From a virus (Duplodnaviria > Caudoviricetes): a stretch of 50,385 nt of DNA. Made by a program: the position numbers and the translations under genes. Below are positions 150 through 45,395 of this stretch, one piece after another. The notes beneath the pieces were generated by a model. That model saw nothing but the letters and a program-made list of their open reading frames with translations. It was not told the DNA's origin and ran no database searches. Positions within the stretch are counted from its first letter, which is position 1, and each line of letters begins with the position of its first letter. The DNA is taken from the IMG/VR virus record IMGVR_UViG_3300005253_000363, positions 1 to 50,385 of that record, one strand, 5' to 3'.

Positions 150-286
150 AAGCCCGGGACATCAAATACAAGCCTGGCAGATTCGAGTGGACGTGTGACT
201 GTGGCAGGAAACTCTGCTGGGTAGGTGGCCCTCCCGGTATGGAGCTCGTATGTGAGTGTGGTCGGGAATTCAGGTTGGTGCCATGA
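146..286 (+). CDS. 46-aa Cys-rich (CxC...CxC) zinc-ribbon-like protein
   Basis: MKARDIKYKPGRFEWTCDCGRKLC...VCECGREFRLVP*; ATGA overlaps at both ends. Confidence 0.55.
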   Translation: MKARDIKYKPGRFEWTCDCGRKLCWVGGPPGMELVCECGREFRLVP

Positions 287-834
287 TGAAAGTCTTAATC
301 GCATGTGAATTTAGCGGAGTTGTCCGGGATTCTTTCAGGGCGCGGGGGCATGATGCCTGGAGTTGTGATCTGCTTGAATGTGAAGGCGCCCCGAAATATC
401 ACATCCAGGGTGACGTGCTGGAAATCCTCGATGATGGATGGGATTTGATGATTGCTTTTCCTCCCTGTACTCACTTGTCGGTATCTGGCGCAAGGTGGTT
501 TAAGGGCAAGGAAAAAGAACAGAAGCAAGCCTTAACCTTTGTGCGTGATTTAATGGAAGCATGCAGCCCTAGAATTGCCATTGAAAATCCCATTGGCGTT
601 ATTAGCACGAAAATCAGAAAGCCGGATCAGATTATTCAGCCTTGGCAGTTCGGACACGGAGAGACTAAAGCAACATGCCTGTGGCTGAAGGGCTTGCCTG
701 AACTCGTGCCGACAAATATTGTTGAGGGCAGAGAAGCGAGGATACACAAAATGGCACCGTCGAAAGACAGGGGAAAGCTCAGATCAATAACCTACCAAGG
801 CATTGCCAACGCAATGGCAGAACAGTGGGGCTGA
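283..834 (+). CDS. Phage DNA cytosine methyltransferase (short C5-MTase-like family)
   Basis: KVLIACEFSG SAM-binding start, catalytic FPPC, IENP and QPWQFGH motifs. Confidence 0.85.
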   Translation: MMKVLIACEFSGVVRDSFRARGHDAWSCDLLECEGAPKYHIQGDVLEILDDGWDLMIAFPPCTHLSVSGARWFKGKEKEQKQALTFVRDLMEACSPRIAIENPIGVISTKIRKPDQIIQPWQFGHGETKATCLWLKGLPELVPTNIVEGREARIHKMAPSKDRGKLRSITYQGIANAMAEQWG

Positions 835-4212: not shown

Positions 4213-4380
4213 ATGAATGACCATGATTGGTTTGGTATTATTTGTGCCTTGCTAACGTTATTTGTTGGATTTCATTTAACAGTTAACACAAATGATATCC
4301 TTTGTAATTATCTAATTGGTCCGGTCTTTTTAGGGCTGGGGTCAACTGGACTTTATATTGAATGGGAGCAAATTAGATGA
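4213..4380 (+). CDS. Inserted 55-aa membrane protein
   Basis: MNDHDWFGIICALLTLFVG...; ATGA overlap with 4377. Confidence 0.6.
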   Translation: MNDHDWFGIICALLTLFVGFHLTVNTNDILCNYLIGPVFLGLGSTGLYIEWEQIR

Positions 4381-5177
4381 AGATACCACCTTTACATATT
4401 CTTATTGTTGGAGAACCCTTCGCCGGAAAAAGTACCTTCTGCCGTACCATGCCCACCCCGAATCTTGTATTCTTCTTTGATCCTGTTGGTAAAGATGAAG
4501 CCTATCTCGAATGCGGGGATGTACAGGATTTAGACAACGGCCAACCATTAAAGACCCTTCAAGGGGCTCCAATGAAAAGAGTCTGGAGCCGTGAGAAGGA
4601 GCCTAAACTGCTCTTTCAGGTGGAATACTATCATGATGGGGAATGGGTTGAAGATCCAATAAAGGGAGGGTTCAAGCCTACTCCCGTAGCCTACGAGCAA
4701 TTTTGCAAGAGACTTATCAACATAGACCAAGAGTTTGATTACTGGAATACAATCAGTCTTGACTCTTACTCCGGAGCTGAACTTTCTGCCATGCTCCGTG
4801 AAAAATTTAAGCTTAATCCAGGAACAAAATTCGATCTCCGGCATTGGGGTGGCGGGGCTAGATCGGAACTTGAGATGGCGATATTCGCAAGGTTCGGGAT
4901 GTTTCCAATGAATGTTGTAGTGATCTGCCACGAGAAAGTATACCAGAACGATAAGACCGGAGAAATTATCCGGCAGGCAGATACCTACGGAAATCTTGGT
5001 AACACATTTGGCAGAGGCTTCTCCGAAATGTATCGTATGGTTAATATCCCGAATGTAGGTCGCCAGTTACAAACCCAGAAAGACGCAATGTGGAACGCAA
5101 ATTCCAAATATGCTCCAAATCCCTGTGAGCCTAGTTATCAAGCGGTAATCGCTTCAATCACCAATCAAGGAGAATAA
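4377..5177 (+). CDS. P-loop ATPase, Sak4/AAA_24-like recombinase
   Basis: Walker A GEPFAGKS, ISLDS Walker B, NVVVICHE; lies between exonuclease and SSB. Confidence 0.8.
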   Translation: MKIPPLHILIVGEPFAGKSTFCRTMPTPNLVFFFDPVGKDEAYLECGDVQDLDNGQPLKTLQGAPMKRVWSREKEPKLLFQVEYYHDGEWVEDPIKGGFKPTPVAYEQFCKRLINIDQEFDYWNTISLDSYSGAELSAMLREKFKLNPGTKFDLRHWGGGARSELEMAIFARFGMFPMNVVVICHEKVYQNDKTGEIIRQADTYGNLGNTFGRGFSEMYRMVNIPNVGRQLQTQKDAMWNANSKYAPNPCEPSYQAVIASITNQGE

Positions 5178-9178: not shown

Positions 9179-9561
9179 CTGACAACGAAGTCACTGAGGC
9201 TTACTTTCGGGCGATGGGGTGGAAACGCTTCAAAGATCGCAGAGATGATGGTTCAGGGCATGGTCGTAATGAAAACGTAACTGGCTGGGTAGACTCAGAT
9301 GGGGAGGAATGGTATGACTTACCAAACATCCTCGAATCCAACTCCGCCTATATCCGTGAGGTTGCTGATGTGATGGAAGGAGAGGGATGTAGACTATTCA
9401 TTTGGCAACCAGCAACTGATCCTTACTCAGTTGTATGGTCTATACCTGATCTAAGAGAAGGGTGCAATAAAGTAGTGGGACGGGAACCAGTCATCAAAAA
9501 CAACACTTCCCGCGCCGCTGTTATTGCCGCGACTCGGTACTTTGAGGAGAAATCAAAATGA
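9175..9561 (+). CDS. Phage ABA-sandwich-like protein (paralog 3)
   Basis: MTDNEV...AMGW...LPN...SRAAVIAA. Confidence 0.6.
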   Translation: MTDNEVTEAYFRAMGWKRFKDRRDDGSGHGRNENVTGWVDSDGEEWYDLPNILESNSAYIREVADVMEGEGCRLFIWQPATDPYSVVWSIPDLREGCNKVVGREPVIKNNTSRAAVIAATRYFEEKSK

Positions 9562-9683
9562 AATGGGAATACATGCTTACCAGTAATTGGGGCCTCGATG
9601 AAATGAATAAACTAGGTCAAGAGAGATGGGAGTTCATAGCAACAATTAATAACTCCTTAGTTTGGAAGCGAGAGATAAAATGA
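9558..9683 (+). CDS. DUF4177-like micro-protein
   Basis: MKWEY...MNKLGQERWEFI...WKR signature. Confidence 0.6.
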   Translation: MKWEYMLTSNWGLDEMNKLGQERWEFIATINNSLVWKREIK

Positions 9684-10042
9684 CCCTAGAGCAAATAACA
9701 GCCGTGGCAGAGGAAGTTTGGGGATGGGATAAGCATAGCTCTCCGGGATTGTGGTTTGATCTTAATAGGGTTGAAAGCAAATTAAGAACCTTAGATGATT
9801 TGAAGCTGGAGTTAGAATCCTGGTCCGGCTTCGGCAGGACGGTGGAGGCTATGGCTGATAGGGAGTTTGTATTGTTGATTGACAACACCCCAGGCTTCGT
9901 TAAATTAAAGCCAAATTTAATCAGCTACAGCTACGAAGGTGGTCCTGTCCCAAAGCTTACAGCTAAAGAAATAATCGAAGCAACCCACCTCGCCGCCCTC
10001 GAAGCGAAGCGGAAGGAGAAGGAAGATGCGGAAGGTTCATAA
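9680..10042 (+). CDS. Phage ABA-sandwich-like protein (paralog 4)
   Basis: AVAEEVWGW...EATHLAALEA. Confidence 0.55.
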   Translation: MTLEQITAVAEEVWGWDKHSSPGLWFDLNRVESKLRTLDDLKLELESWSGFGRTVEAMADREFVLLIDNTPGFVKLKPNLISYSYEGGPVPKLTAKEIIEATHLAALEAKRKEKEDAEGS

Positions 10043-10169
10043 GAGTATTAACGCTATCTGTCGAGTTCTTTGTGGGCCTACTAATTGGTTCGCTTCTGGA
10101 GTTAATGTTACTCGCTACAATAAAAAAGTAACCTGCCTCCGGTGCTTGAAGATTATGGAGAAGAAATGA
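10026..10169 (+). CDS. Small Zn-binding protein (paralog of 1684-1866)
   Basis: MRKVHK...LCG...VTCLRCLKIMEKK*. Confidence 0.6.
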   Translation: MRKVHKSINAICRVLCGPTNWFASGVNVTRYNKKVTCLRCLKIMEKK

Positions 10170-10242
10170 TGTGGGAAATTATTGACTTTTGGGTAGGCTT
10201 AATCTTAGGAGCGGTATTTATCACAGTGAATAGGGGACGAAG

Positions 10243-12144
10243 ATGATCCAATCCAATAAACAAGTCCCCGACTGGGGAGATGCTTCATCCCGTCTTATTC
10301 TTATCGGGGAAGCTCCAGGCCGTGAAGAGGAACAACGTGGTCAGCCCTTTGTAGGAGCTTCAGGGCTCAAGCTCAATGAGTGGTGGGCCAGAGCAGGACT
10401 TCATCGTGGGATGTTTTACATTACAAATGTCCTTCCATCCCGTCCGTGGAATAATGACATCTCCAAGGTTCCTCAAGAGGAGTTGGATTATTGGGCAGAG
10501 CATCTGAGGAAGAAGATTAGTGGACTCCCGGAGCCGTTTATTCTGATTCCAACCGGGAAGACTGCACTCAGAGCACTCTTAGGAAAGGATAATATCTCAG
10601 ACCTCAGAGGATCTATTCTCTCTTATGAAGACGAGGGTAGGACAATCAAAGTGATTCCTACAATTCATCCAGCGGCGACTCTCAGAGCAAAGAAGTTCGA
10701 GGCCAGATGTATCTATGACTGGATGAGGATTGCTTATGAGGGAGGGTTTCGGGAGGTCAGACTGCCGAAAAGGGACCATATTATAGCTCCTCCAATGGAT
10801 CAGTGTGAGAACTACGCATATAGGGTCTTAGAGCTCCAAAAACCTCTGGCTGTAGATATTGAGACCCACCCTCAAGAAGGAATTACCTGTGTAGGGTTTG
10901 CAACTGGACCTCAGCAGTCGTTCACCATTCCCTTCGGAGTCAAACGCTCTATCCACCTTACCGGCAACAAACCGAAAGAAGTAAAGGAACGAGAGACGAA
11001 GAAAGCCAATGACCGCATCTCCAAGGCAGTCTTTCACAAGGAGCATCCCCTCGAAAGTTACCATACAAAGAAGAGAGAGCTCAATTCAATAGAGAAATGG
11101 AAGATCCAGAAGAGACCTCTCGTAGTAATCTGCCGGATTGTAGAGGAGTATGAGAAGGAGCATAAGCTGCCCTCTCCAGATTGGGAATCAGATGGCGGGT
11201 ATTTTATTACAGTAGGCTACTGGGAAACGGAGGAACAGAATGAGAAAGCTAAAGATATTATCAGATCGCTTATTGAAGGAGAGAATCCACTCATCTTCCA
11301 CAATGGATTCTATGATACCTACTGGCTCAAGGACTGGCTCGGTTGTGATATACAGAACTGGCACTGGGACACCCTTGCTATGCACCATTGTCTTGTCCCC
11401 AATGAGGAACACTCACTTGACTTCCTCGCATCAGTCTACACCTCAGAACCATTCTGGAAGAAAGAAACCAAAGAAGCAGAGGCCAGTGGAAAGTATTACA
11501 AGAAGCAGGAAGTCCTCTGGAAATACAACGGGAAAGATGTAGCGGTTACTTTTGAGCTTTACGAGAAATTCCTGAAGATGCTCCAGGATTCTGGGCGGAT
11601 GGATTTCTACTGGAAGCATTATTATAACTTGTATGAGCCTCTGCTGGAGCTATCTTTGACTGGAATCAAGACTGACATTGAAAAGAGGAGTCAGCGGCGG
11701 GTGCAGTTTCAGGAGGAGCTTCAAGTTCTCCTCAAAGAAATCGAAGAACTGGCAGAGAAGCCTCTGCATGGAGCGAAGGCCCTTTCCAGTAAAAAGGTTC
11801 AAGAGTATCTCTATGAAGACCTGAAACTCCCCAAGCAGAAACGATACCGACCAGAAAAGAAAGAGAAAACTTCTACGGCTGATGAACTGGCAATTAGGAC
11901 TCTGATGCTCAGGTTTCCTGAGAAGTTGAATGTTGTAGGAGAGAAGATTCTTAGATGCCAGAGACTGAATAAATTACTTGGGTATCTGAAAGAAGCAAAG
12001 ATCGACCCTGATGGAAGATTGAGAAGTCAGTATAAATTCAATACGACTACGGGAAGATTGGCGAGTGGAAGTAATCCTTACGGAACTGGCGATAATGCCC
12101 AGAACGTTGACCGGGAGCTTCGAAACATTTATGTTGCTGGCTGA
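10243..12144 (+). CDS. polA: DNA polymerase A, N-terminal part: family-4 uracil-DNA glycosylase, 3'-5' exonuclease, thumb and first palm segment
   Basis: UDG motifs GEAPG, PFVGASG, YITNV, HPAA; Exo motifs DIET, HNGFYD, YNGKD; PolA TTGRLAS...NAQNV...RNIY; stops just before motif A. Confidence 0.92.
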   Translation: MIQSNKQVPDWGDASSRLILIGEAPGREEEQRGQPFVGASGLKLNEWWARAGLHRGMFYITNVLPSRPWNNDISKVPQEELDYWAEHLRKKISGLPEPFILIPTGKTALRALLGKDNISDLRGSILSYEDEGRTIKVIPTIHPAATLRAKKFEARCIYDWMRIAYEGGFREVRLPKRDHIIAPPMDQCENYAYRVLELQKPLAVDIETHPQEGITCVGFATGPQQSFTIPFGVKRSIHLTGNKPKEVKERETKKANDRISKAVFHKEHPLESYHTKKRELNSIEKWKIQKRPLVVICRIVEEYEKEHKLPSPDWESDGGYFITVGYWETEEQNEKAKDIIRSLIEGENPLIFHNGFYDTYWLKDWLGCDIQNWHWDTLAMHHCLVPNEEHSLDFLASVYTSEPFWKKETKEAEASGKYYKKQEVLWKYNGKDVAVTFELYEKFLKMLQDSGRMDFYWKHYYNLYEPLLELSLTGIKTDIEKRSQRRVQFQEELQVLLKEIEELAEKPLHGAKALSSKKVQEYLYEDLKLPKQKRYRPEKKEKTSTADELAIRTLMLRFPEKLNVVGEKILRCQRLNKLLGYLKEAKIDPDGRLRSQYKFNTTTGRLASGSNPYGTGDNAQNVDRELRNIYVAG

Positions 12145-12616
12145 TAAACAAATCAAAGAATTAATCCTGAATCATAACTTGTTGACTCCCTACGAACTGG
12201 AGAAGAAAGTCTTTGAGGGAGTCTCCTATGGACTGTCGAGTTGTAGTTATGATTTGAGGCTTAGTGAGCTGGAACTTCTTTGGGGATCACCTCTAAGTCT
12301 CAAGATCGAGCCGGGTGGGTTTCGTCTAGGTTGTACCCTCGAAACAATTAAAATGCCGCATAATATAGTAGGGCTCATCAAGGACAAATCTACATGGGCC
12401 AGAAGGGGATTGTCTGTATTCAATACTTTAATTGATCCAGGCTTCGAGGGACAGATTACTCTTGAGTTGAAGAATCAAGGAACAGAGCTTCTTAAGATGC
12501 CCTATGGTATTGGTATCGCCCAAATCATATTCTTCGAGTGCGGGGAAGTGGAGAATCCTTACAGCGGAAAATATCAGGGCCAGACTGGAATTACTGGGCC
12601 GAAGGAGGAGAAATGA
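12131..12616 (+). CDS. dcd: dCTP deaminase (trimeric dUTPase fold)
   Basis: SYGLSSCSYDLRL, KSTWARRGL, IDPGFEGQITLE, IAQIIF and YSGKYQGQ motifs. Confidence 0.9.
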   Translation: MLLADKQIKELILNHNLLTPYELEKKVFEGVSYGLSSCSYDLRLSELELLWGSPLSLKIEPGGFRLGCTLETIKMPHNIVGLIKDKSTWARRGLSVFNTLIDPGFEGQITLELKNQGTELLKMPYGIGIAQIIFFECGEVENPYSGKYQGQTGITGPKEEK

Positions 12617-12619
12617 AAA

Positions 12620-12865
12620 ATGAGTAGAAAAACTGTTTTTATTTATGTTATTGAGGTTAAACTCCCGTGGAAAAGAACTTATCAAGTGCCTGCTGGTCCT
12701 CAAGGTATATTTTGTACCGACTACAAAACTGCATTAAAAGAACTTGAAGAATACCGAATAGACCTTGATCCTGAAAAGGATTGTCCTAAGTCTGAATATA
12801 GGATTGTTATTTATGCGGCTGTAAGAGACCTTTACGGGATACTTGCAAAAGAGGCTGTGAAATGA
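12620..12865 (+). CDS. Hypothetical protein
   Basis: Strong RBS; coupled to neighbours. Confidence 0.6.
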   Translation: MSRKTVFIYVIEVKLPWKRTYQVPAGPQGIFCTDYKTALKELEEYRIDLDPEKDCPKSEYRIVIYAAVRDLYGILAKEAVK

Positions 12866-13044
12866 AACCCTTCGACATCGGACTTACAATTTTATTCAGC
12901 TTTGGACTAGGTATTGCAATAGGTCACATACAGGAAGCTCAGTGGGCTCAAATTGATATCAATGCTCTCAAAGCTCAGGTGGAGAAGTTGCATTGTGTTG
13001 GAGAAATCACTTATCCTGAAATGTTGGAGGAGGGGAGGAAATGA
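12862..13044 (+). CDS. Small membrane-anchored protein
   Basis: N-terminal hydrophobic helix. Confidence 0.55.
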   Translation: MKPFDIGLTILFSFGLGIAIGHIQEAQWAQIDINALKAQVEKLHCVGEITYPEMLEEGRK

Positions 13045-13211
13045 GGAATACAAATTCGCCAGTCTGGGTTGTTGAAACTGTTTATCGTAATATGCTCCAT
13101 ACGAGAGAGGACGCAAGGAAATTTCAACGTTATAGAATTAAGAATCCAGAAGCCTTTCCAAAGAAAGAGAATCAACACAGAGTTATTATAAGAAAGGCAA
13201 AAATGAAATGA
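13041..13211 (+). CDS. 56-aa basic hypothetical protein
   Basis: MRNTNSPVWVVE...KAKMK*; ATGA overlap with 13208. Confidence 0.55.
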   Translation: MRNTNSPVWVVETVYRNMLHTREDARKFQRYRIKNPEAFPKKENQHRVIIRKAKMK

Positions 13212-13987
13212 CTCCCTTCCTCATGGAACTCGACCTCTCCCAGGTAGAATCACGCATCTGTTATATGCTCACTCGTGATCCTGTCCTAGTCAAGCAGGCT
13301 CAAAGCCAGCCTTGGGAGTTTAACGGGCATACAGAAACTGCTCGGATGATTTATGGAGTAGAAGACCCTACTCCCCTCCAGTACTATCTAGGCAAGAAAA
13401 CATCTCATGGAGTCATGAGAGGAATGCAGGGAAAGAAACTGGCAGACGAATTATTAAAAGAAGGCACCGTAATGGCAGTCACTGAATGTGATTGGCTGAT
13501 TCAACGATTCTTCGAGACGAAACCAGCAATCCGGGATGTGTACTTTGTTGAAGTCCGTCAGCAGGTTTGGGATCACCGGAAACTTACGAATTCTTTTGGC
13601 CGTGTTATCGAGTGGCCTTTTGATAGATTCGGGGACGATCTCTATCGAGAAGCTTACTCGTGGCCTCTTCAATCGGATGCTGCTGACCTTATCAATCAAC
13701 AGGGATTGATTCCAATGCATCATTGGTTGAAGCAGGGTAAAATGTATACCAAGATCCTGGCTCAGGTTCATGATTCACTGCTGTTCAATACCTGTATCGA
13801 GGAAGCCTATGATGTAGCACTGGCCTTTAAAGGATGGATTGCAGAGCCTATTGAGTATCCGGCTGGGCCACTTTCGGTGCCGGTGACTTTTAAGATTGGC
13901 AAGACTTGGGCTGGGGATCATGAGTGGAAGAGACTACCGAGTAGGGAAGAATTTAACGAGAAAATAAAAGAGATTATAGGAGGTTAG
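13208..13987 (+). CDS. polA: DNA polymerase A, C-terminal catalytic part (motifs A, B, C)
   Basis: DLSQVESR (A), KKTSHGVMRG (divergent B), NSFGR, QSDAAD, QVHDS (C). Confidence 0.92.
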   Translation: MTPFLMELDLSQVESRICYMLTRDPVLVKQAQSQPWEFNGHTETARMIYGVEDPTPLQYYLGKKTSHGVMRGMQGKKLADELLKEGTVMAVTECDWLIQRFFETKPAIRDVYFVEVRQQVWDHRKLTNSFGRVIEWPFDRFGDDLYREAYSWPLQSDAADLINQQGLIPMHHWLKQGKMYTKILAQVHDSLLFNTCIEEAYDVALAFKGWIAEPIEYPAGPLSVPVTFKIGKTWAGDHEWKRLPSREEFNEKIKEIIGG

Positions 13988-13988
13988 G

Positions 13989-14237
13989 ATGTGTTATTTA
14001 GAGCAAGTTGTAAAGAGTCTTGAAGAAGATTTTTCTAGTTGGGATGGTTCAACCAACAAACGGTATTTGTTGCATAAGGAATCAAGTATTCGTTTATATA
14101 TTGATGGAGGAGAGGAGAATATTTTTATAACAGAGCCTCTAACTGTAAACCCTTCGAATATAGAGAAGAAAGCTCTTTGGGGGGCTGTCCAAAAATGCTG
14201 CGAGAATATCCTTCTAGCACACTGTAAAAAGTTATGA
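13989..14237 (+). CDS. Hypothetical protein
   Basis: GGAGG RBS; AT-rich ORF. Confidence 0.6.
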   Translation: MCYLEQVVKSLEEDFSSWDGSTNKRYLLHKESSIRLYIDGGEENIFITEPLTVNPSNIEKKALWGAVQKCCENILLAHCKKL

Positions 14238-14443
14238 TTAAAAAACCAACCCTAGACTCAATCGACAAACGACTTCTCCACATGCGGAGACTGTTCAATA
14301 TCATGAAGGCTCACAAGAGGCATCCCTTGATGGATGATGCTTTCAAGTCCCTCAAGCGTGAAGCTCGTAGCCTTGATTCCATGATGCGCGAAGCTGTTAA
14401 ATCCGGTGATGTGGAGTTCAGGCCCCGTGAAAAAAAGGTATGA
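14234..14443 (+). CDS. Hypothetical protein
   Basis: Coupled ORF. Confidence 0.55.
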   Translation: MIKKPTLDSIDKRLLHMRRLFNIMKAHKRHPLMDDAFKSLKREARSLDSMMREAVKSGDVEFRPREKKV

Positions 14444-15653
14444 GTATGAGACAAATACCAACTTTATAGCTCTTTACAAGTACCATTGTGGAACTTCTCA
14501 GGTTCCTGATTCGTTTCATAAATGGAGTTCGATCAGCCTTCTGGCTGCTTGTATGGGGAATAATATATGGTTGGAGAAATTCAAGGGGGATAGGCTTTAC
14601 CCGAATCTCTATGTCCTCCTGATCGGTCCTTCGGCTGTTGGTAAGGGTATAGCTATCGGCAAGGCCCACAAGTTTGCGGATTATGAACCTGGAATCATAA
14701 ATCCCCATAGAATATCTACCACTAAGAGGGGAAATATCCAGCTCATGTCCCGTCCTGCAAGATTTAAGGCGCAAGAGTATCACGGTTCCAGGATATATAC
14801 CATCTCACCAGAGCTGGTTAATGACATTGGTTCCGGTCCCTTGGCTGATGAATGGGTTCGCTGGATGACTGCCATGTTCACTGAAACAGATACCAAGTGT
14901 ACTGATTCTACGGGAGTACATGGTATTCAGCTGCTTGACGAACCTATGATTAATTGGCTTGGTGGGAGTACCGAGGAGTGGATGCGAAAGAGTATTACGG
15001 AGGATGCAATCACTGGCGGGTTCTTTGCTCGAACTGTAGTAGTTTCAGAGGAGGCTAATTACAGTCGCCGCATTCATAAGCCTACAGTTCCTTGGGACTA
15101 TGACGCTGTTAAAGAGCATCTTATAAGGAGAATACAAGGTTTCTGCCGCGTTGAGGGTCAGATGGTACTCTCACCGGAAGCAGAACAGATTGATGCTATT
15201 TGGTTTCATAATCGTCCACCACCTGATGAAGAGTGGGAGAGTGCGATGTGGAACCGGGAGCATGATATTATCCTGAAGGTTGCAATGGTGGTTGCCATGA
15301 GCGATCTTTCATGTTGGGGACATGATAGATATAACTTGGTAATTAATGGCCTTCATATTCAGGCCGCTCAACAATGGGTGACTAAAGTGCATAGTGATGT
15401 CAAGCCTCTTATAAAGATTCACGCAACTACGAGAGAGTCTATGTTTTTTGATATAGTCGTTAAATTTATTAAGGGATCAAGGGACGGTATTAATCATACA
15501 ACTCTCCTGAGAAAAGTTTATGGGCGGGGAGTTACGACAAAGTATCTGGCAAATATAATAGCGACTCTTATGGAAGCCGGGCATGTGGATATAGATTTCC
15601 GGGGAGATAGGAGAGCTAAATATTATGTGTGGAAGAGGAAGAGGTTAGGGTAA
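14406..15653 (+). CDS. DUF3987/YfjI-like P-loop NTPase, putative replicative helicase with C-terminal wHTH
   Basis: FHKWSSISLLAA, YPNLYVLLIGPSAVGKG (Walker A), GGFFAR; true start may be GTG near 14427. Confidence 0.75.
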   Translation: MMWSSGPVKKRYEYETNTNFIALYKYHCGTSQVPDSFHKWSSISLLAACMGNNIWLEKFKGDRLYPNLYVLLIGPSAVGKGIAIGKAHKFADYEPGIINPHRISTTKRGNIQLMSRPARFKAQEYHGSRIYTISPELVNDIGSGPLADEWVRWMTAMFTETDTKCTDSTGVHGIQLLDEPMINWLGGSTEEWMRKSITEDAITGGFFARTVVVSEEANYSRRIHKPTVPWDYDAVKEHLIRRIQGFCRVEGQMVLSPEAEQIDAIWFHNRPPPDEEWESAMWNREHDIILKVAMVVAMSDLSCWGHDRYNLVINGLHIQAAQQWVTKVHSDVKPLIKIHATTRESMFFDIVVKFIKGSRDGINHTTLLRKVYGRGVTTKYLANIIATLMEAGHVDIDFRGDRRAKYYVWKRKRLG

Positions 15654-15698
15654 TGGGCAAGATTATATTTGAGGCTATTCTACAGATTTCAATAGTGA

Positions 15699-17633
15699 TT
15701 ACTCTCCTGTTATGGTTCTTCTGAAGTCTTCTACGCTATTGAAAGTCCCGTCCGGTTTCTGTAGATTCGGGAAGAACTGCTGGATTGGAAGCCCTGAATC
15801 TTTGAATTGCTTGATGAACCGGCTTCGAGTTTTAGGATCAGCTGCGATTGTTCTTGAAGCAGAGCCAATAAGAACGTCTGTAATGTTCTGCATGGCTTGA
15901 GCTGCGAGTGGGTGATCGTTAGTAAGCCTAAGTCCGACAGTCAACCAGCGAACTCCCGTTTGACTTGTTAGAAGTTTTGCGATCATAGGAGGAGACAAAA
16001 CAATAAGTCCCTGAGCCAGTCTATTATCCCCAACCCCTCTTTCTCCCAGGGCTAGGTTAACCATCAGACCACCCTGCCCAATATTAATTAGGTTGAATCC
16101 AGGTCTTACACGAGCCGATTGAGCTAACTCGCCCGGTCTAAATCTTTCGGCGATTGTAGCAATATCCTGCAAGACTTGAATCTGACCGTCAGTAAAAACT
16201 TGTTGAAGGCTTTCCATTTGTTGCTTGTCCATGATTTGATTAAAGTTTTCAATGTTACCTTTACTCATTAGATCGTCAGCGAAAGCTCTTTGGAACATCG
16301 GCCAGTCACGTTCTCCAATTATACTTCGTAGGGCTTTAATGTTTGTTACATCACCAGTCTGGAATATCCCCCTAAATAAATCTTCTGGGTCTTTGCCTAC
16401 AATCTTTTTTCCAAGCCCTGATTTCTGCAACTCAAGCATCTCAATGAAACGATCCTTAGCTTCTCGTAATACTGTAAGAGCTTCCTGCTTATCTCCCTTT
16501 CCCTTAAACTGAGCCGACTCAATACTTTCAGCAATTCCTTTAAAGAGTTGTTTGACTTCCCCTTCCGGAAGATTCTTGAGTTTGGCAGTCTTAGCTCCAA
16601 GGCGTTTCTGAATCTCTCTTGCCTGTTTAAAGGTTATAAACTCTGGAAGCTCTTTCATCTCGTTTGCCAGCCTCTGTATTGATCTGAATTGAAGTCCTTT
16701 TGTTACTAAGGCTTCCTGCCCCAGTATCGTGTTTGCAGCAACCTTCAATTCCGCTGTTGGAATGATTTTAGTTTCTCCTGCTAATGATTCTGCCTTAGCG
16801 AAAAGTCTTCCAGCTTCATCATCCAGAATCTTAATCGTGTCATCAAAGGAACTCTCCGCAAATTCTCCGAGTGCAGACATTACTTTCTTGGGACCAGTCT
16901 TCTCCAAGAATCTATTCTGGAAAGCTTTAAATAGATTTATCCGTTTGTTATTGAAACGCTTTAGGATACCACCAGAGATGAGTCCTTGTCCTGCAAAGCT
17001 TTCCAGTCTGCCCACGAATGTTCTTCGGGTAATATCGAATGGAGTTGGTTGAATACCAAGTCTTTCAAAAGCCTGTATTGCTGCAATATCTTCTGGGAGC
17101 AAGGAATCAGCAAAAGGAGCAAGTCCAGTATTCTTTAAGGTTCTTACTCCTCTAACAATACCTTGTCCTCCAGCCTCAGCAATCAGCCCAAAGACTCCTT
17201 CTTGTCCGATTCTTTGCATAGCTTCTTTGGTCGTTTGTGGTGCATTTGGATCGGATGTTATTTGCTCAATAATTTGTTGAATTGCTTCTCCACCAGCAGA
17301 ACCTAATGAAGCAAGACCAGCCATCGCAGGAGGACCACCAGGAATCCCTGCAATACTACCAGCTGTTCCGCCAATGACTGCTCCTGTAGGGAATCTTTCT
17401 TCTTCTGGTGCCACAAGAGGTTCTTGTGTGGGAACTACCGCTTTGTCAGGATCAAGATTGATTTCGAGTTCGGGTCCTTCTTCAAGTTCTATGTTGAATC
17501 CGAGCTTCTTCTGCTGAAGCTCAAACAATCTACTCTTTTTACGGAGTTCTTGCAAGCGGAGAAACTTCTGTTCCGTTGTCAGCTGTTGACTGGGGATTAC
17601 ATTATCTACCAAGTTCTTTCTCCAAGGCTTCAA
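15699..17633 (-). CDS. Large internal virion / DNA ejection protein
   Basis: Last gene of the structural arm; Gly/Ala-rich segment followed by a helical region. Confidence 0.6.
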   Translation of the reverse strand: MKPWRKNLVDNVIPSQQLTTEQKFLRLQELRKKSRLFELQQKKLGFNIELEEGPELEINLDPDKAVVPTQEPLVAPEEERFPTGAVIGGTAGSIAGIPGGPPAMAGLASLGSAGGEAIQQIIEQITSDPNAPQTTKEAMQRIGQEGVFGLIAEAGGQGIVRGVRTLKNTGLAPFADSLLPEDIAAIQAFERLGIQPTPFDITRRTFVGRLESFAGQGLISGGILKRFNNKRINLFKAFQNRFLEKTGPKKVMSALGEFAESSFDDTIKILDDEAGRLFAKAESLAGETKIIPTAELKVAANTILGQEALVTKGLQFRSIQRLANEMKELPEFITFKQAREIQKRLGAKTAKLKNLPEGEVKQLFKGIAESIESAQFKGKGDKQEALTVLREAKDRFIEMLELQKSGLGKKIVGKDPEDLFRGIFQTGDVTNIKALRSIIGERDWPMFQRAFADDLMSKGNIENFNQIMDKQQMESLQQVFTDGQIQVLQDIATIAERFRPGELAQSARVRPGFNLINIGQGGLMVNLALGERGVGDNRLAQGLIVLSPPMIAKLLTSQTGVRWLTVGLRLTNDHPLAAQAMQNITDVLIGSASRTIAADPKTRSRFIKQFKDSGLPIQQFFPNLQKPDGTFNSVEDFRRTITGE

Positions 17634-37399: not shown

Positions 37400-37618
37400 T
37401 TATTGTTTATCCTGTTTAGTATCTATTCTTTTGTGAATCCTGTCAAGTCTGGTATCCAGTTCTGTACGGGTCGGTCGTTCTGCCACCATCTCTGTAAGGT
37501 GTTCATGACCTTTCTGAAGTCCTGTGATAGAAGGCTTTATCTCCGTTTGGAGATATTGCATAACATTCATTCCATTGCCATTTCCTAAGACTTTTCTCAG
37601 GAATTTCAGCCAGTTCAT
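37400..37618 (-). CDS. Hypothetical coiled-coil protein
   Basis: RBS GGAGG; coupled to TerL-C. Confidence 0.55.
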   Translation of the reverse strand: MNWLKFLRKVLGNGNGMNVMQYLQTEIKPSITGLQKGHEHLTEMVAERPTRTELDTRLDRIHKRIDTKQDKQ

Positions 37619-38295
37619 TAATGACCTCCTTTGACGAGTTGAAGATAGTCATCCATTGTATTGATGTGAAGGTCATCTCTGGAGCGGATTCTGGCTTGCT
37701 GTTCGATATAGTCCACTGGGGCTCCTGAGTTTCTAAGGTAATCCAAGTAGGCCTGGGTTTCATCCGAGGCCTTGGAGACAAATGTCTGCTTGGGGAGGAT
37801 ACTGACTGCTGAGGCCAAAGCGTCGATGATGTCTTTAATGGTGGACATGGGGAAGTCCAAGACTTCTTCCAGAAGGGAATACTGGGATTTCTTGACAAAG
37901 AGGCGGCCTTGGGAGACTACCGGCTGAAGATGGGTTCTGATCCTGAAGTCCTTGTTCATGGAGGTAGGGTGGACTATGGACTGGGAAGGAAGGTTGATTC
38001 CTTTTTCGTAAGCATCAAGAGAGACTGAATCCGCAAAGAGTCCTTGCTGGGCGTTGCCTTCAATGCCGAAGACTTCAGGCTTGTACTTGGCGTTGAATTC
38101 GTAGATTTTCTGGTAGATCTTTTGGGTGGCACAGCGTTCAGCCCATGTTTCACGGACAAAGATTCGGTTGGCTGCATCGGAGGAGACTGCTACGATTGCA
38201 GATCGGGCTTTGGTTTTTTGTTTGTTCTCCTTGCCTCCGGCTGGATCTAGGAAGCAGACTGTGGAGATGAGGTAGTCTCTTGAGAGCTTCTGCAT
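37618..38295 (-). CDS. terL: Terminase large subunit, C-terminal RNase H-like nuclease part
   Basis: FLDPA, FGIEGNAQQ, KDFRI, DFP...KDIIDALA motifs. Confidence 0.88.
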   Translation of the reverse strand: MQKLSRDYLISTVCFLDPAGGKENKQKTKARSAIVAVSSDAANRIFVRETWAERCATQKIYQKIYEFNAKYKPEVFGIEGNAQQGLFADSVSLDAYEKGINLPSQSIVHPTSMNKDFRIRTHLQPVVSQGRLFVKKSQYSLLEEVLDFPMSTIKDIIDALASAVSILPKQTFVSKASDETQAYLDYLRNSGAPVDYIEQQARIRSRDDLHINTMDDYLQLVKGGH

Positions 38296-38507
38296 GCTTC
38301 AATCTGTTCCCAACGAACTCTGGGAACTGGACCTCCTTCAGGGACGTTGGGAAACTGAGGACTGGAGAGTGTGATGTGAATAGCGTTGAATTCGTGGACA
38401 AGAGCCCCCGAACCGACTCCTACGATTTCTACTCCTTCTGGCAAGTCTAGGATCTCTTTTAAGTCTTTATAAGTAAGACGAAGATAGCCGACTTTATCCT
38501 GATTCAT
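38247..38507 (-). CDS. Hypothetical protein
   Basis: LDLPEG...FPNVPEG; RBS. Confidence 0.6.
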   Translation of the reverse strand: MNQDKVGYLRLTYKDLKEILDLPEGVEIVGVGSGALVHEFNAIHITLSSPQFPNVPEGGPVPRVRWEQIEACRSSQETTSSPQSAS

Positions 38508-39069
38508 GTTCCTTCTCCTCAGTTAAGATTGTATAAAGTTTCCTTGTTGCTTTGATGTCCTCCAGTGCATCATGGGCATCGAACTCGATGTCGAAGTGGT
38601 GGCAGACAGTTTCCAGCTTTTGATTGGGAAGACTGGTATCTGTCTCGATCAGGTATCGAGCGAGGAATGATTGGACATCCAGCTTGGCCCACATGATGTA
38701 AGCTCCGTAGTAGTCGTTCTTGTTTTTCTTGAAGGCTGCTCGGAGGAACTTGTCATCGAAGCCTACATTGTAGCCTGCAAGCACGAACTTGTCTCTGGAA
38801 TCGAATCGGTCTATGTGGCGTTGCAGAGCAGTCTCGAATTTGTAGATTCCCTCGGATTGGGATTGGAAACTCTCGAAGTCCTTTTCGGAGAACTTGTTCT
38901 TCATGAGAGCTTCTGGAGAAATGACTGAATCGGGACCGGGCTTCATGAAGATTTCGGATTCTTCCATCATCTGGCCGTCGATTTCGATTAAATAACCGAT
39001 TTGGATGATATCGTTTGTGAAGGCGTTTATGCCGGAGGTTTCTGTGTCGAGCCAGAGGATTTTTCCCAT
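38494..39069 (-). CDS. DEDDh 3'-5' exonuclease (DnaQ-like)
   Basis: LDTETSG, GYNVGFD, AHDALED. Confidence 0.9.
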   Translation of the reverse strand: MGKILWLDTETSGINAFTNDIIQIGYLIEIDGQMMEESEIFMKPGPDSVISPEALMKNKFSEKDFESFQSQSEGIYKFETALQRHIDRFDSRDKFVLAGYNVGFDDKFLRAAFKKNKNDYYGAYIMWAKLDVQSFLARYLIETDTSLPNQKLETVCHHFDIEFDAHDALEDIKATRKLYTILTEEKEHESG

Positions 39070-39368
39070 TAGATTTTAGTTTCGTCCAGTTTATGTTCTC
39101 CACACCAATCACTAACAAACACTACAGGCCAACCATTCAAGGTAGGCGCATTTCGGCGACAACGACCAATATTGGATTCAGTGGTTCGTACAGACTCGGC
39201 TTCTTCCACAGGAACAATTTTTCCCGGCCTCGCTTCTACAATCTTACTAAAACTCCCTTTAACGATATAAACTGGGGGTTGCTTCAAAACAAACCACATG
39301 CAAGTCTTACATTTATTTTTTCCTTCGTGATGATTCCAGTTATCTTCTGACATATTATTTCTCCTCAA
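39069..39368 (-). CDS. Cys-rich hypothetical protein
   Basis: CKTC...GRCRRNAP...WP...DWCGEH. Confidence 0.65.
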   Translation of the reverse strand: MRRNNMSEDNWNHHEGKNKCKTCMWFVLKQPPVYIVKGSFSKIVEARPGKIVPVEEAESVRTTESNIGRCRRNAPTLNGWPVVFVSDWCGEHKLDETKI

Positions 39369-39652
39369 AAACCGAAAAGTTTTTTTAGTCTGATATAATA
39401 TTCAGACTCGTCCATAAATTCAGTGTTTGTTCTAAATCTAACAATACGATCAAACTCAAATGATTTACTTTTAAGCCTTTCAAGTTCCAAGATAACTTCT
39501 TGAGTCTTGTTTTTCTTGCCGAGCAGTTCAGTTGTCCTTCCGGTTATTTCTGAAGACCTTAAACCAAGATATTGTTTCAAATCGTCAAATGAGGTCATGT
39601 AAATTTCATCCATGAGTTTAAGATTGATTAACAAAACTTCCCAGTTATCCAA
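39365..39652 (-). CDS. Hypothetical protein (AT-rich)
   Basis: ORF overlapping the TerL-N stop. Confidence 0.55.
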   Translation of the reverse strand: MDNWEVLLINLKLMDEIYMTSFDDLKQYLGLRSSEITGRTTELLGKKNKTQEVILELERLKSKSFEFDRIVRFRTNTEFMDESEYYIRLKKLFGF

Positions 39653-40824
39653 GCATCTCGTTTGAATTCTATGTCAGCCCAAGAAGCATATTGTTTGTAC
39701 TCAGGCTTCTTCGGTTCTTCCTTCTCAGGTTCAGCCATCATCAAGGCTACCATACTCTGATCCCTTTCGTCATCCTCAAAAATGAAATCATTGCCTACTT
39801 CTTCGTAGAAGCGGAGATCGGATTCCCGGAAATCTGTGAGTCCTGCGTCGCGGGGATTGTTCAGGTAGAGTAGGGAGAACAGGGGGCCGAGGGATTCTTT
39901 GAGATTGTGAACGGCCTGCTTGGAGAATTCTTCGGGAAAGATGATCTTCCCATTCTCGATTAGAGAGCGTTTGTAGACGGATACTGTAGGATCATTCTCG
40001 ATCATTTCTGCGTAGAGATCATTAGTTGCCCAGTGTGTCCCGACTGTAAACTCTTGTGATATATCCAAGTCCTCCATCATAGGCCGGGAAACTCTTTGCC
40101 ACTCTTTAGCAGTTTCCATTACGGATTCAGAGCCTCGTGCTTCAAGGGAGATGAGATCGTCGTTGATGAGGTCAGTGAAATGACCGCCTGTGATGGCACC
40201 GCCTACACCGATTCCCTGCATAGTAGGATCGGACTGCTCAAATGACAGGTCTCTAGGAAGAAAGAACATAGAACTGTTCCATTTCCGGGCTTGTCTTCGA
40301 GGAGCATCCCAGCACTTGTCGGGCCATAAGACACGGAGTAATGCGTTTCTCTCGAAGTGCTGCTGAATCCATTGAATATGCTTGGAAGCATGATGCTCTG
40401 TCTCGCAGGATAAAAGGATTTTGCATTCCAGTCCGTTATGTCCGGGCCAATAGACATTGCTTTCCTTGGGTTGTATAAACTTATGGATTGGAAGTCCTTT
40501 GGAGACTATCGTGGACTTGAACGTATCTCGTGGAAGCATGATGAGCTTTCTGTACGGGGGAATCTTCTGGATAAACTCACAGACTTCACGGTGGAGGTGA
40601 TTTGTTAAACGGGTGAGGCCAAGAATAGCTTTGCAGAAGAAGTGGAGGTCTGTTTCAGCTTTCTTTTTGACAAGTTTTAGAAGGCGGCCATTAGGGTCTG
40701 TGGTTCCTGCTTGACGGGGTTCCCCGTTTTTCTGGATGACGAGTTCCCGGTCCAGGAGTTGTTTTGGGGGTGGGGGGATGTATTGTGGGGATTCCTTTGA
40801 AAGTGTATCCAGTATGTCCATCAA
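39628..40824 (-). CDS. terL: Terminase large subunit, N-terminal ATPase part
   Basis: MLPRDTFKST (Walker A), ITGGHFTDLINDD (Walker B), GTHW..NDLY, FPEEF, YLNNP. Confidence 0.92.
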   Translation of the reverse strand: MMDILDTLSKESPQYIPPPPKQLLDRELVIQKNGEPRQAGTTDPNGRLLKLVKKKAETDLHFFCKAILGLTRLTNHLHREVCEFIQKIPPYRKLIMLPRDTFKSTIVSKGLPIHKFIQPKESNVYWPGHNGLECKILLSCETEHHASKHIQWIQQHFERNALLRVLWPDKCWDAPRRQARKWNSSMFFLPRDLSFEQSDPTMQGIGVGGAITGGHFTDLINDDLISLEARGSESVMETAKEWQRVSRPMMEDLDISQEFTVGTHWATNDLYAEMIENDPTVSVYKRSLIENGKIIFPEEFSKQAVHNLKESLGPLFSLLYLNNPRDAGLTDFRESDLRFYEEVGNDFIFEDDERDQSMVALMMAEPEKEEPKKPEYKQYASWADIEFKRDAWITGKFC

Positions 40825-44357: not shown

Positions 44358-44545
44358 TTTAATACTCTTTTAATAATGCTTTTGGCTTCTTTAGCAGCAG
44401 AGTCTACTACAAATTTGTTGAAACTAGCACGCTGGCCAACTTCGCTGGTTGCGTTCAATAAATCTATAGCACGCTGGATGGAATCCATCTGTTCTAGGGA
44501 TTTAAATCTAATCATCCGCTTGTCGGATTTTCTTTCGCTTGTCAT
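44354..44545 (-). CDS. RHH / DUF1778-like DNA-binding protein
   Basis: RMIRF...IQRA...SFNKFVVDSA. Confidence 0.5.
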   Translation of the reverse strand: MTSERKSDKRMIRFKSLEQMDSIQRAIDLLNATSEVGQRASFNKFVVDSAAKEAKSIIKRVLK

Positions 44546-45000
44546 TTCTTCGGCCTGTACAAAAAAACTTCCACATCAGGAAGCCTCGAAAAAGTTTCCT
44601 CGATCTTGGGAAGAACATGATTCCAATTGAGTCCACCCAGACCACAACCGAGAGCCGGAATCGCAATTGATTTAATGTTTAGTCTCTCAATCGTTTGTTC
44701 CAGGGCTTTTAATCCCTTTGTAATATAAACAAGTTCCGAAGGTTTCTTCCAAGTGCTCTTTGTCGGGAAGTTTATGATGTATTTTGGGTGCGGCCTCTCA
44801 AGTCTTGTTGCTGAGACAAGAACAGTTCCAATATTCAGCTCCCCACTTTTACAGGCTTGTTCGTAAAATTTAAAGTTCAGGTTGAATTGTTTTTTCATGT
44901 GAAGTGCCAGTCCTTTACCCATAACACCTTCACAGTTGACTGGATTGACGTAGGCTTCGGCAGTTGAGCTTAAAAGGTCGTTAGAGAGTATCTGGATCAT
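44542..45000 (-). CDS. Macrodomain ADP-ribosyl hydrolase, DarG-like
   Basis: VNPVNCEGVMGKGLA, IINFPTK..W, SIAIPALGCGLGGLNW. Confidence 0.9.
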   Translation of the reverse strand: MIQILSNDLLSSTAEAYVNPVNCEGVMGKGLALHMKKQFNLNFKFYEQACKSGELNIGTVLVSATRLERPHPKYIINFPTKSTWKKPSELVYITKGLKALEQTIERLNIKSIAIPALGCGLGGLNWNHVLPKIEETFSRLPDVEVFLYRPKK

Positions 45001-45395
45001 GGTTGATTCTCCCAAAACTTTGGAAAGGCATCGTTTGATACTAACCAATTGCCCACTGACTGGTCATAGATCAAAATGATCGGCTTTGTTCGACTTGACC
45101 ACATAGAAATTATGCCGTCCCTTGCATGGTTCTGGCTGTATTTTAAAATTTGAATTATATGCCCGAAATATGGAATCAGATATTTTTCAATCTCTTCTTC
45201 ACTAAAATCTCGTAGGTTACCAGTGAATACCAATGTGTCCCATCGACCTGTACAGCCAATAGAAAAGTGCATTGGCCCCTCAGATCCGTATGGACGCGCT
45301 TCATCATTGATGTCAAATTCCAACTGCTCTAACGAAGTTTCACTTCCACGACTGTCAAAAGAGATTACTCCGGCCATTTGCGTCCATTCACTCAT
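44997..45395 (-). CDS. Hypothetical protein
   Basis: MSEWT...PYGSEG...GNLRD. Confidence 0.6.
   Translation of the reverse strand: MSEWTQMAGVISFDSRGSETSLEQLEFDINDEARPYGSEGPMHFSIGCTGRWDTLVFTGNLRDFSEEEIEKYLIPYFGHIIQILKYSQNHARDGIISMWSSRTKPIILIYDQSVGNWLVSNDAFPKFWENQP

Follow-up and report, generated by a model that had tools for sequence, protein, structure and literature searches.

A family A DNA polymerase encoded in two open reading frames that part just before motif A in an uncultured marine sediment phage

The window analysed here is the whole IMG/VR virus record IMGVR_UViG_3300005253_000363 (50,385 bases), which stems from an uncultured phage of marine sediment, is classed as linear in IMG/VR and has a CheckV completeness of 97%. 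On its plus strand a family A DNA polymerase (PolA) is encoded in two separate open reading frames (ORFs). The first one (10243..12144, 633 aa), in the following termed the N-half, comprises a family-4-like uracil-DNA glycosylase (UDG) domain, a 3'-5' exonuclease domain and the start of the polymerase domain as far as the beta-strand NIYVAG. Its last residues are ...NAQNVDRELRNIYVAG, and it is closed by the stop codon TGA (12142-12144), which is immediately followed by TAA. The second ORF (13208..13987, 259 aa), termed the C-half, begins with MTPFLMELDLSQVESR, its first residue lying 8 residues ahead of the motif A Asp, and includes motifs A to C. The C-half possesses an ATG of its own at 13208, with AAAGG upstream, which is coupled to the preceding gene by an ATGA overlap as had been noted in an earlier annotation made from the letters alone (the sequence-only reading).

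According to the Pfam scan the N-half contains the UDG domain (PF03167, 8.2e-25) at residues 9-151 and the 3'-5' exonuclease domain (PF01612, 1.9e-11) at residues 336-448. The UDG segment includes the sequence GEAPG, which we take to be a family-4 UDG motif. Together with the subsequent polymerase domain (DNA_pol_A, PF00476) the order UDG, exonuclease, polymerase is that of the SPO1-like UDG-fused PolA proteins. The Pfam scan assigned positions 6-128 of the PF00476 profile to the N-half and positions 154-380 to the C-half (4.3e-22), and a six-frame family search with the same profile (381 positions) extended the matches to 6-148 in the first and 153-380 in the second ORF. The N-half on its own scored 31.5 bits and remained below the cut-off of 34.3, while the C-half exceeded it with 78.6 bits. 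Jointly both halves span positions 6-380 of 381, with at most about 4 profile positions unaccounted for, and in the six-frame search they were the sole PF00476 matches across the 97%-complete record.

When the halves are joined, 15 residues separate the Arg of LRNIYVAG from the motif A Asp, exactly as in the fused relatives P0026 and P0027 and one fewer than in the fused relatives P0024 and P0025. In a profile of 22 C-half sequences position 4 of the C-half aligns to the motif A strand of Taq polymerase (LLVALDYSQIELRV), followed by motifs B and C, which places the cut eight residues before the catalytic Asp. The corresponding alignment of the N-half (residues 320-633) comprised 16 rows. The sequence-only reading had claimed that the polymerase is divided just before motif A and that essentially nothing is lost at the division; the complementary profile coverage and the register of the fused relatives agree with both statements.

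Motif A of the C-half (DLSQVESR; DYSQIELR in Taq polymerase) shows the D..Q.E pattern, and its residues D9 and E14 are nearly invariant among the 22 sequences. In motif B K63 is invariant, and a Tyr is found in the phage where RRAAK of Taq polymerase has its first Arg, which is also the consensus of the clade. Furthermore, an invariant H67 occupies the Phe position and an invariant R71 the Tyr position of NFGVLYGM in the Taq enzyme. Motif C reads QVHDS instead of QVHDE, with H188 and D189 being invariant and the next residue being S, E or A across the clade. Since fused relatives carry the same deviations in motifs B and C, these are uninformative about the split.

The gap between the two halves (12145..13207, 1063 nt) is wholly coding and holds four ORFs with 3 nt of spacer in total, in agreement with the earlier description of a block of about 1.06 kb in which dcd and three small ORFs overlap or lie a few bases apart. 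The gene dcd (12131..12616, plus strand) is predicted to encode a dCTP deaminase-like protein of 161 aa (PF22769, 1.1e-19; phrog_1663, 5.3e-47). A start of this gene at GTG 12065, as given in a mechanical ORF listing, was rejected in favour of ATG 12131. Compared with its counterpart in the related viral record L007, dcd has a ratio of non-synonymous to synonymous substitution rates (dN/dS) of 0.115. The three small ORFs on the same strand encode 81 aa (12620..12865), 60 aa (12862..13044) and 56 aa (13041..13211), and none of them had a match in Pfam or PHROG. The 81-aa ORF has a homologue directly upstream of the C-half in L029 (69% identity, dN/dS 0.215). The 60-aa ORF, which starts in an ATGA overlap and has a hydrophobic N-terminus, has relatives in the gaps of L007 and L026, and shares 47% identity with the 65-aa ORF of L007 at a dN/dS of 0.288. 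The 56-aa ORF is bounded by an ATGA overlap on either side and is 23% identical to the L007 ORF in the same position.

In order, the junctions consist of a 14-nt overlap between the N-half and dcd, the 3-nt spacer and three ATGA overlaps. As the six genes from 10243 to 13987 are chained in this manner, both halves would be co-expressed from one transcript. The region 9500-16000 was also scanned for promoters and terminators; their numbers were close to those expected from shuffled sequence and the gap was free of plus-strand terminator-like sites, from which no firm conclusion is drawn.

The content of the gap differs among related loci. In L007 the gap of 1448 nt contains five ORFs, encoding 77 aa, 105 aa, the dcd product, 65 aa and 62 aa, and in L023 dcd is accompanied by a differing 107-aa ORF. 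The L025 gap lacks dcd and contains genes predicted to encode a MazG-like dATP/dGTP pyrophosphohydrolase (PF04447, 4.5e-07) and a protein of 48 aa, while the L053 gap consists of 144 nt with a single 43-aa ORF. A SLOG/YspA-type protein (PF10686, 2.1e-10) was detected in the gap of L012, which is split at another site (site B, see below), and an Endonuclease_7 protein (PF02945, 5.1e-19) in that of L065. The latter was the sole nuclease among the 24 gap ORFs scanned in the relatives and the studied phage, whose own four gap ORFs had no match to a nuclease family in Pfam or PHROG.

Between the studied phage and L023 the synonymous divergence (dS) is 0.26 in the C-half and 1.9 in the dcd part, and therefore the history of the gap differs from that of its flank. 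Loose ends of related strains in metagenomes cluster at the borders of the gap (12128-12159 and 13200-13208). Thus, the gap is a variable cargo slot, which is a new point of this analysis. The junctions of the gap genes (12603-13230) share a GAAATGA-like stop/start overlap, and the first 27 nt at the start of the 60-aa ORF (12858-12884) and the beginning of the C-half (13204-13230) share 78% identity (repeat D1). Judging by the letters at these junctions, such microhomology could possibly serve as a substrate for cassette exchange. A contig of run X2 joins 12609 to 13205 and would represent a variant without the three small ORFs; since one side of the joint comprises only 30 letters, it is a mere hint.

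Whether the split occurs elsewhere, as the sequence-only reading had proposed to survey, was assessed by an in-frame upstream walk from the C-half match in 97 sources (96 loci and the studied phage). The polymerase is fused in 59 sources (58, and L102 with 621 open codons upstream) and split at the site of the studied phage (site A) in 17, including the pairs L007/L024 and L033/L034 with identical C-halves. Five sources (L012, L048, L050, L055 and L070; three of them near-identical) are split at site B, which lies about ten residues earlier, after ...QNLKR. The state could not be told for 16 sources, because the start of the C-half lay outside the locus or alignment (10) or because of a contig edge (6). 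All nine determinable sources with a C-half identity of at least 55% are split at the same site (the studied phage, L007, L024, L023, L025, L026, L028, L029 and L030). The two-ORF layout recurs in a second viral record (L006/L007; C-half identity 88%), and a stop just before the motif A strand was found in the metagenome records L023 (97%), L024, L025 (80%), L026 (76%), L028 (60%) as well as L029 and L030 (55%). At 52% C-half identity the relative L039 is fused. Wherever both halves are on the contig, the C-half is located 0.15-1.5 kb downstream of the N-half. The split is thus conserved in the clade of the studied phage, with fused alleles in sister lineages.

A search of the protein database with the C-half yielded 23 matching proteins (142-454 aa), 21 of which were aligned, the partial sequences P0017 and P0019 being left out. 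Among the aligned proteins 17 start 1-13 residues ahead of the motif A strand; the other four include P0015 and P0023, which are fragments of fused genes, and two proteins which start past motif A. Identities of 49-55% were reached by longer relatives (about 800-900 aa) in which UDG, exonuclease and polymerase domains are combined. A DUF3987/primase-like gene (14406..15653, plus strand) is the syntenic downstream neighbour of the polymerase in fused and split relatives, and the same neighbour is annotated in Mel-JY34. In Caulobacter phage Kuura (L002, OQ067476; 2986-6390) a third split site within this polymerase family was observed, where a 369-aa ORF with a match to the UDG and exonuclease part is followed by two small ORFs and a 560-aa ORF annotated as 'DNA polymerase'.

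The C-half tree was calculated from 67 distinct rows (46 fused, 14 split, 7 untold), 10 duplicates having been removed and only those rows being used whose match began no later than position 10 and extended at least to position 220. It is unrooted and results from a quick IQ-TREE search with support from the Shimodaira-Hasegawa-like approximate likelihood ratio test (SH-aLRT) only. The studied phage belongs to a clade of eight rows (support 98), seven of which are split and one untold. This clade is nested in a clade of ten rows (support 99) together with the split L030 and the fused L039. The split/fused label requires 5 changes on the tree, at least 4 of which are forced by the starred branches; constraining the 11 site A rows to a single group cost 266 log-likelihood units (approximately unbiased test, p-AU 1.2e-116), this group having been named after seeing the tree. 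The split/fused state has changed several times. As the count was made on an unrooted tree, it does not distinguish gains from re-fusions. Nevertheless, at least three independent cuts can be deduced, since sites A and B differ in position and the polymerase of phage MEP401, which is split likewise (see below), belongs to another PolA lineage. According to the relatives the cut is old, recurrent and maintained by selection.

Both halves are under strong purifying selection. Relative to L007 the N-half has a dN/dS of 0.055 (dS 1.78) and the C-half one of 0.059 (dS 1.48), and in the comparison of the C-half with L023 the value is 0.092 at a dS of 0.26. The neighbouring DUF3987 gene, used for comparison, has a dN/dS of 0.128. 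Relaxed selection on either half, which the sequence-only reading had named as a possible refutation, is hence not apparent. All 14 C-half starts inspected are ATG or GTG (GTG directly before IFLE.D), mostly with a purine-rich, Shine-Dalgarno-like stretch upstream. The N-half ends with ...YVAG in the clade of the studied phage, with ...FVPD in L053, ...FVPDE in L043, ...FIPDLED in L059 and ...FVPDEESTNGADI in L056. These ends of variable length, combined with the start signals of the C-halves, are in keeping with free protein termini rather than splice junctions.

The in silico co-folding of the two chains, which had also been suggested, was performed with residues 320-633 of the N-half and the C-half. 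Used as a consistency check, it passed the controls with a score of 0.87 compared with 0.00 for the best control, a mark which 58 of 80 solved complexes and 2 of 110 mismatched pairs attained. The runs agreed in at least 93% of the contacts, with a predicted local distance difference test (pLDDT) value of at least 90 for the partner. The predicted contacts involve residues 627-633 of the N-half and residues 3-5 and 231-236 of the C-half, the last strand of chain 1 lying on strands of chain 2. Because single-chain PolA structures are solved, this pass is to be read as likeness and not as binding.

Taken together, the replicative family A polymerase of the phage is quite likely produced as two separately translated polypeptides which reassemble non-covalently. 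The proposal of a two-subunit PolA made in the sequence-only reading is thereby supported in silico by the survey, the selection analysis, the contigs, the searches for introns and inteins and the co-fold. Chain 1 (633 aa) would contribute UDG, proofreading exonuclease and thumb as well as the first strand of the palm, whereas chain 2 (259 aa) would provide the strand bearing the motif A catalytic Asp, together with the fingers (motif B) and motif C. Since the cut falls at the turn of the beta-hairpin that precedes motif A, nothing is lost and the palm sheet would be completed across the chains.

Alternatively, the halves might no longer cooperate, with the N-half alone acting as a UDG/exonuclease repair protein, the C-half decaying or having another partner, and the phage being replicated by the host polymerase. 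The non-canonical motifs B and C would fit such a scenario. However, the same motif deviations also occur in fused relatives, and the dN/dS of the C-half (0.06-0.09) is low like that of the N-half. Furthermore, the C-half is retained near the N-half in the clade down to 55% identity, and it carries the only PF00476 match above the cut-off in the 97%-complete record. A loss of cooperation therefore seems rather improbable.

Slightly less probable still is the removal of the 1063-nt block as a group I or group II intron, or otherwise at the RNA level, so that the mature mRNA would encode one fused polymerase. Group I introns do occur in this phage polymerase family, as in SPO1 gene 31 with its insert of about 880 nt containing a homing-endonuclease ORF, and an intron was proposed for the split gene of MEP401 by its authors in the available part of their paper (PMC10580990). 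However, no Rfam model matched the region 9500-14500 at E<=1, and none reached the gathering score in the whole record or in 8 related loci including MEP401. The gap, being fully coding with four ORFs and a 3-nt spacer, offers no non-coding room, and the view that an intron core could not be accommodated is hence upheld. Moreover, relatives of dcd and of the 81-aa and 60-aa ORFs occur elsewhere, with the dN/dS values given above, the gap content varies among close relatives whereas an intron core would be conserved, the L053 gap measures just 144 nt, and every C-half has its own start. No RNA run carrying the region 11500-13900 was found on record. A read-through of the N-half stop is opposed by the double stop TGA-TAA.

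The post-translational ligation of the chains by a split intein, a 'fractured gene', is hardly conceivable: fractured loci with a homing-endonuclease gene between the intein halves are known from metagenomes according to the available part of PMC2677866, and the 1017-aa relative P0029 contains an intein with LAGLIDADG_3 and intein-splicing domains, but the latter is located in the exonuclease domain of its UDG-PolA and not at the hairpin site, for which reason it was also rejected as a marker of the split site. Because joining the ends gives the length of the fused relatives and leaves no spare residues, no intein halves are present at the free ends, just as the absence of intein termini had been noted before.

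Equally negligible is an assembly or sequencing artefact, that is, a chimeric contig or a false stop, in this metagenome-assembled record, as the same layout exists in other records at 76-97% C-half identity (L023, L007/L024, L025 and L026) and as both junctions are bridged without differences by contigs of run X1 (11672-12720 and 12698-13900), which may be the source sample, and junctions are also bridged by second-study contigs of runs X2 (12580-13269) and X3 (12055-12212 and 12698-13286).

With regard to the origin of the two-chain polymerase, an ancestral fused gene may have been cut at the hairpin by the insertion of foreign DNA, perhaps a free-standing homing-endonuclease cassette, and the gap may subsequently have become a recombination-prone slot for small accessory genes. 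Clues to this origin are the Endonuclease_7 gene in the L065 gap and the group I intron of SPO1, which, in a gene of this family, lies about 38 codons ahead of motif A.

Several points speak against parts of this interpretation. The co-fold pass may stem from likeness to solved single-chain PolA structures, and the dS values of the comparison with L007 (1.5-1.8) are near saturation. Due to the unusual motif B and to HDS in place of HDE, activity cannot be assumed from the sequence. The absence of RNA splicing is likewise argued from sequence alone. Finally, the homing-endonuclease origin is based on one relative and on analogy, the gap of the studied phage being devoid of a nuclease gene.

As a tentative extension, which we regard as somewhat doubtful, the region from the ...QN motif to the hairpin preceding motif A could be a general insertion hot spot of phage PolA genes. 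It would have been hit independently at site A in at least three UDG-PolA branches, at site B in another, in MEP401 in a different subfamily and nearby by the SPO1 intron, with each hit having become a stable two-chain enzyme. The gap would then have been domesticated as a hypervariable expression slot of the replication operon, swapping nucleotide-pool and other small genes by recombination at short conserved junctions (stop/start overlaps of the GAAATGA type).

A break of the palm sheet eight residues from the catalytic Asp seems to have been tolerated by the PolA fold for long periods of evolution. For enzyme engineering the hairpin site would represent a naturally validated split point. 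Furthermore, an essential gene can act as landing pad and expression slot for variable cargo, and gene callers will list 'truncated' polymerases which are really halves.

The terminase large subunit is also encoded in pieces in this record (37618-40824, minus strand), with positions 266-539 of phrog_38 in the ORF 39628..40824 and positions 549-713 in the ORF 37618..38295. A gene predicted to encode an RNase_T/DnaQ-like exonuclease (38494..39069; PF00929, 3.5e-16) is situated between the pieces. The terminase is also split in three related viral records, into two pieces in those of L007 and L008 and into three in that of L012. Other genes of the record putatively encode a DNA methyltransferase (256-834, plus strand; phrog_757), a Sak4-like annealing protein (4377-5177, plus strand; phrog_124) and a Macro-domain protein (44542-45048, minus strand; PF01661, 2.7e-20).

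Natural two-gene family A polymerases have also been described in T7-like cyanophages and LUZ24-like phages, in which the cut lies at the border of exonuclease and polymerase and not within the palm. For T7-like phages the exonuclease|polymerase split was reported as found 'for the first time' in PolAs in the available part of a reclassification from 2023, in which an association of the two parts was predicted by AlphaFold2 for the cyanophages S-SBP1 and S-TIP37 (PMC10201439). As even this split was presented as a first, splits inside the catalytic domain appear to be barely recognised in the literature, as far as that part of the paper indicates. Unlike the studied phage, S-TIP37 has no cargo between the polymerase parts, and its 'split DNA polymerase' was rejected as the same phenomenon, representing an exonuclease|polymerase split or a frameshift. 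The 'DNA polymerase part I/II' of LUZ24-like phages (PMC3890496, available part) was rejected likewise, being an exonuclease|polymerase split.

The mechanistic model adopted here is that of the genes-in-pieces of T4-related phages. Here inserted DNA, sometimes a free-standing homing endonuclease, divides a gene which is essential for replication. According to the available part of PMC2988022 the family B polymerase (PolB) gp43A/43B of Aeromonas phages 25 and 44RR and the nrdA gene split by mobE in phage Aeh1 belong to this type, and the products co-purify and are active. In contrast to the studied phage, these cases concern PolB and ribonucleotide reductase, and the insert is a nuclease gene or an untranslated spacer instead of variable metabolic and small ORFs. 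A gap-borne nuclease gene, as is characteristic of genes-in-pieces of homing-endonuclease origin, is absent from the studied phage.

SPO1 gene 31 and its relatives, which have the same order of UDG, exonuclease and polymerase, are the nearest named relatives in tblastn searches (identity 22-29%). According to the record annotation the SPO1 gene is likewise interrupted between TGR...QN and motif A, but by a group I intron which yields one chain. SPO1L1 lacks this 880-nt intron, and from its comparison with SPO1 the insertion point maps to about codon 598 (...EPNAQQ...), which precedes the motif A Asp by 38 codons. This point is near site B and, unlike the cut of the studied phage, not at the hairpin. 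No mention of a split inside the polymerase domain of SPO1-like PolA proteins was found in the available parts of PMC13697223 and PMC10201439. The first of these papers, as far as available, states a dCTP deaminase, a dUTPase and a thymidylate-synthase homologue as traits of T-modified genomes in the SP15-like group (PMC13697223). The studied phage possesses dcd and lacks the thymidylate-synthase homologue, with no match to thymidylate synthase (PF00303) or ThyX (PF02511) in the 97%-complete record, and this trait may not define its clade.

The closest correspondence was found in the OM43 phages MEP401 and MEP402 (Zobellviridae), in which ORF13 and ORF15, separated by a small ORF, encode the polymerase. 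Most related metagenomic genomes are split likewise according to the available part of PMC10580990, which was the sole fitting description of a PolA split at motif A found in the literature searches. In the MEP401/402 record gp13 ends with ...IKTLFLSRYGE and gp15 begins with MILNADAKALEW, the Pfam match reaching up to position 132 and resuming at 154-380. This family A polymerase is thus cut at the same hairpin as that of the studied phage, again with a small ORF between the halves. It differs in belonging to another PolA lineage without a UDG domain and in having one 77-aa ORF (236 nt) in the gap compared with four genes (1063 nt) in the studied phage. In the part of PMC10580990 available its authors considered a possible intron and did not place the cut relative to motif A. 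With the same-site split known from these phages and other forms of split phage polymerases in print, the novelty is lower than the sequence-only reading had assumed, and what is new here are the survey of relatives, the second site (B) and the cargo slot. Since MEP401 and MEP402 are cultured, lytic and plaque-forming, the split layout is compatible with growth, and the cultured MEP401/OM43 system allows the question of a two-chain polymerase to be tested directly.

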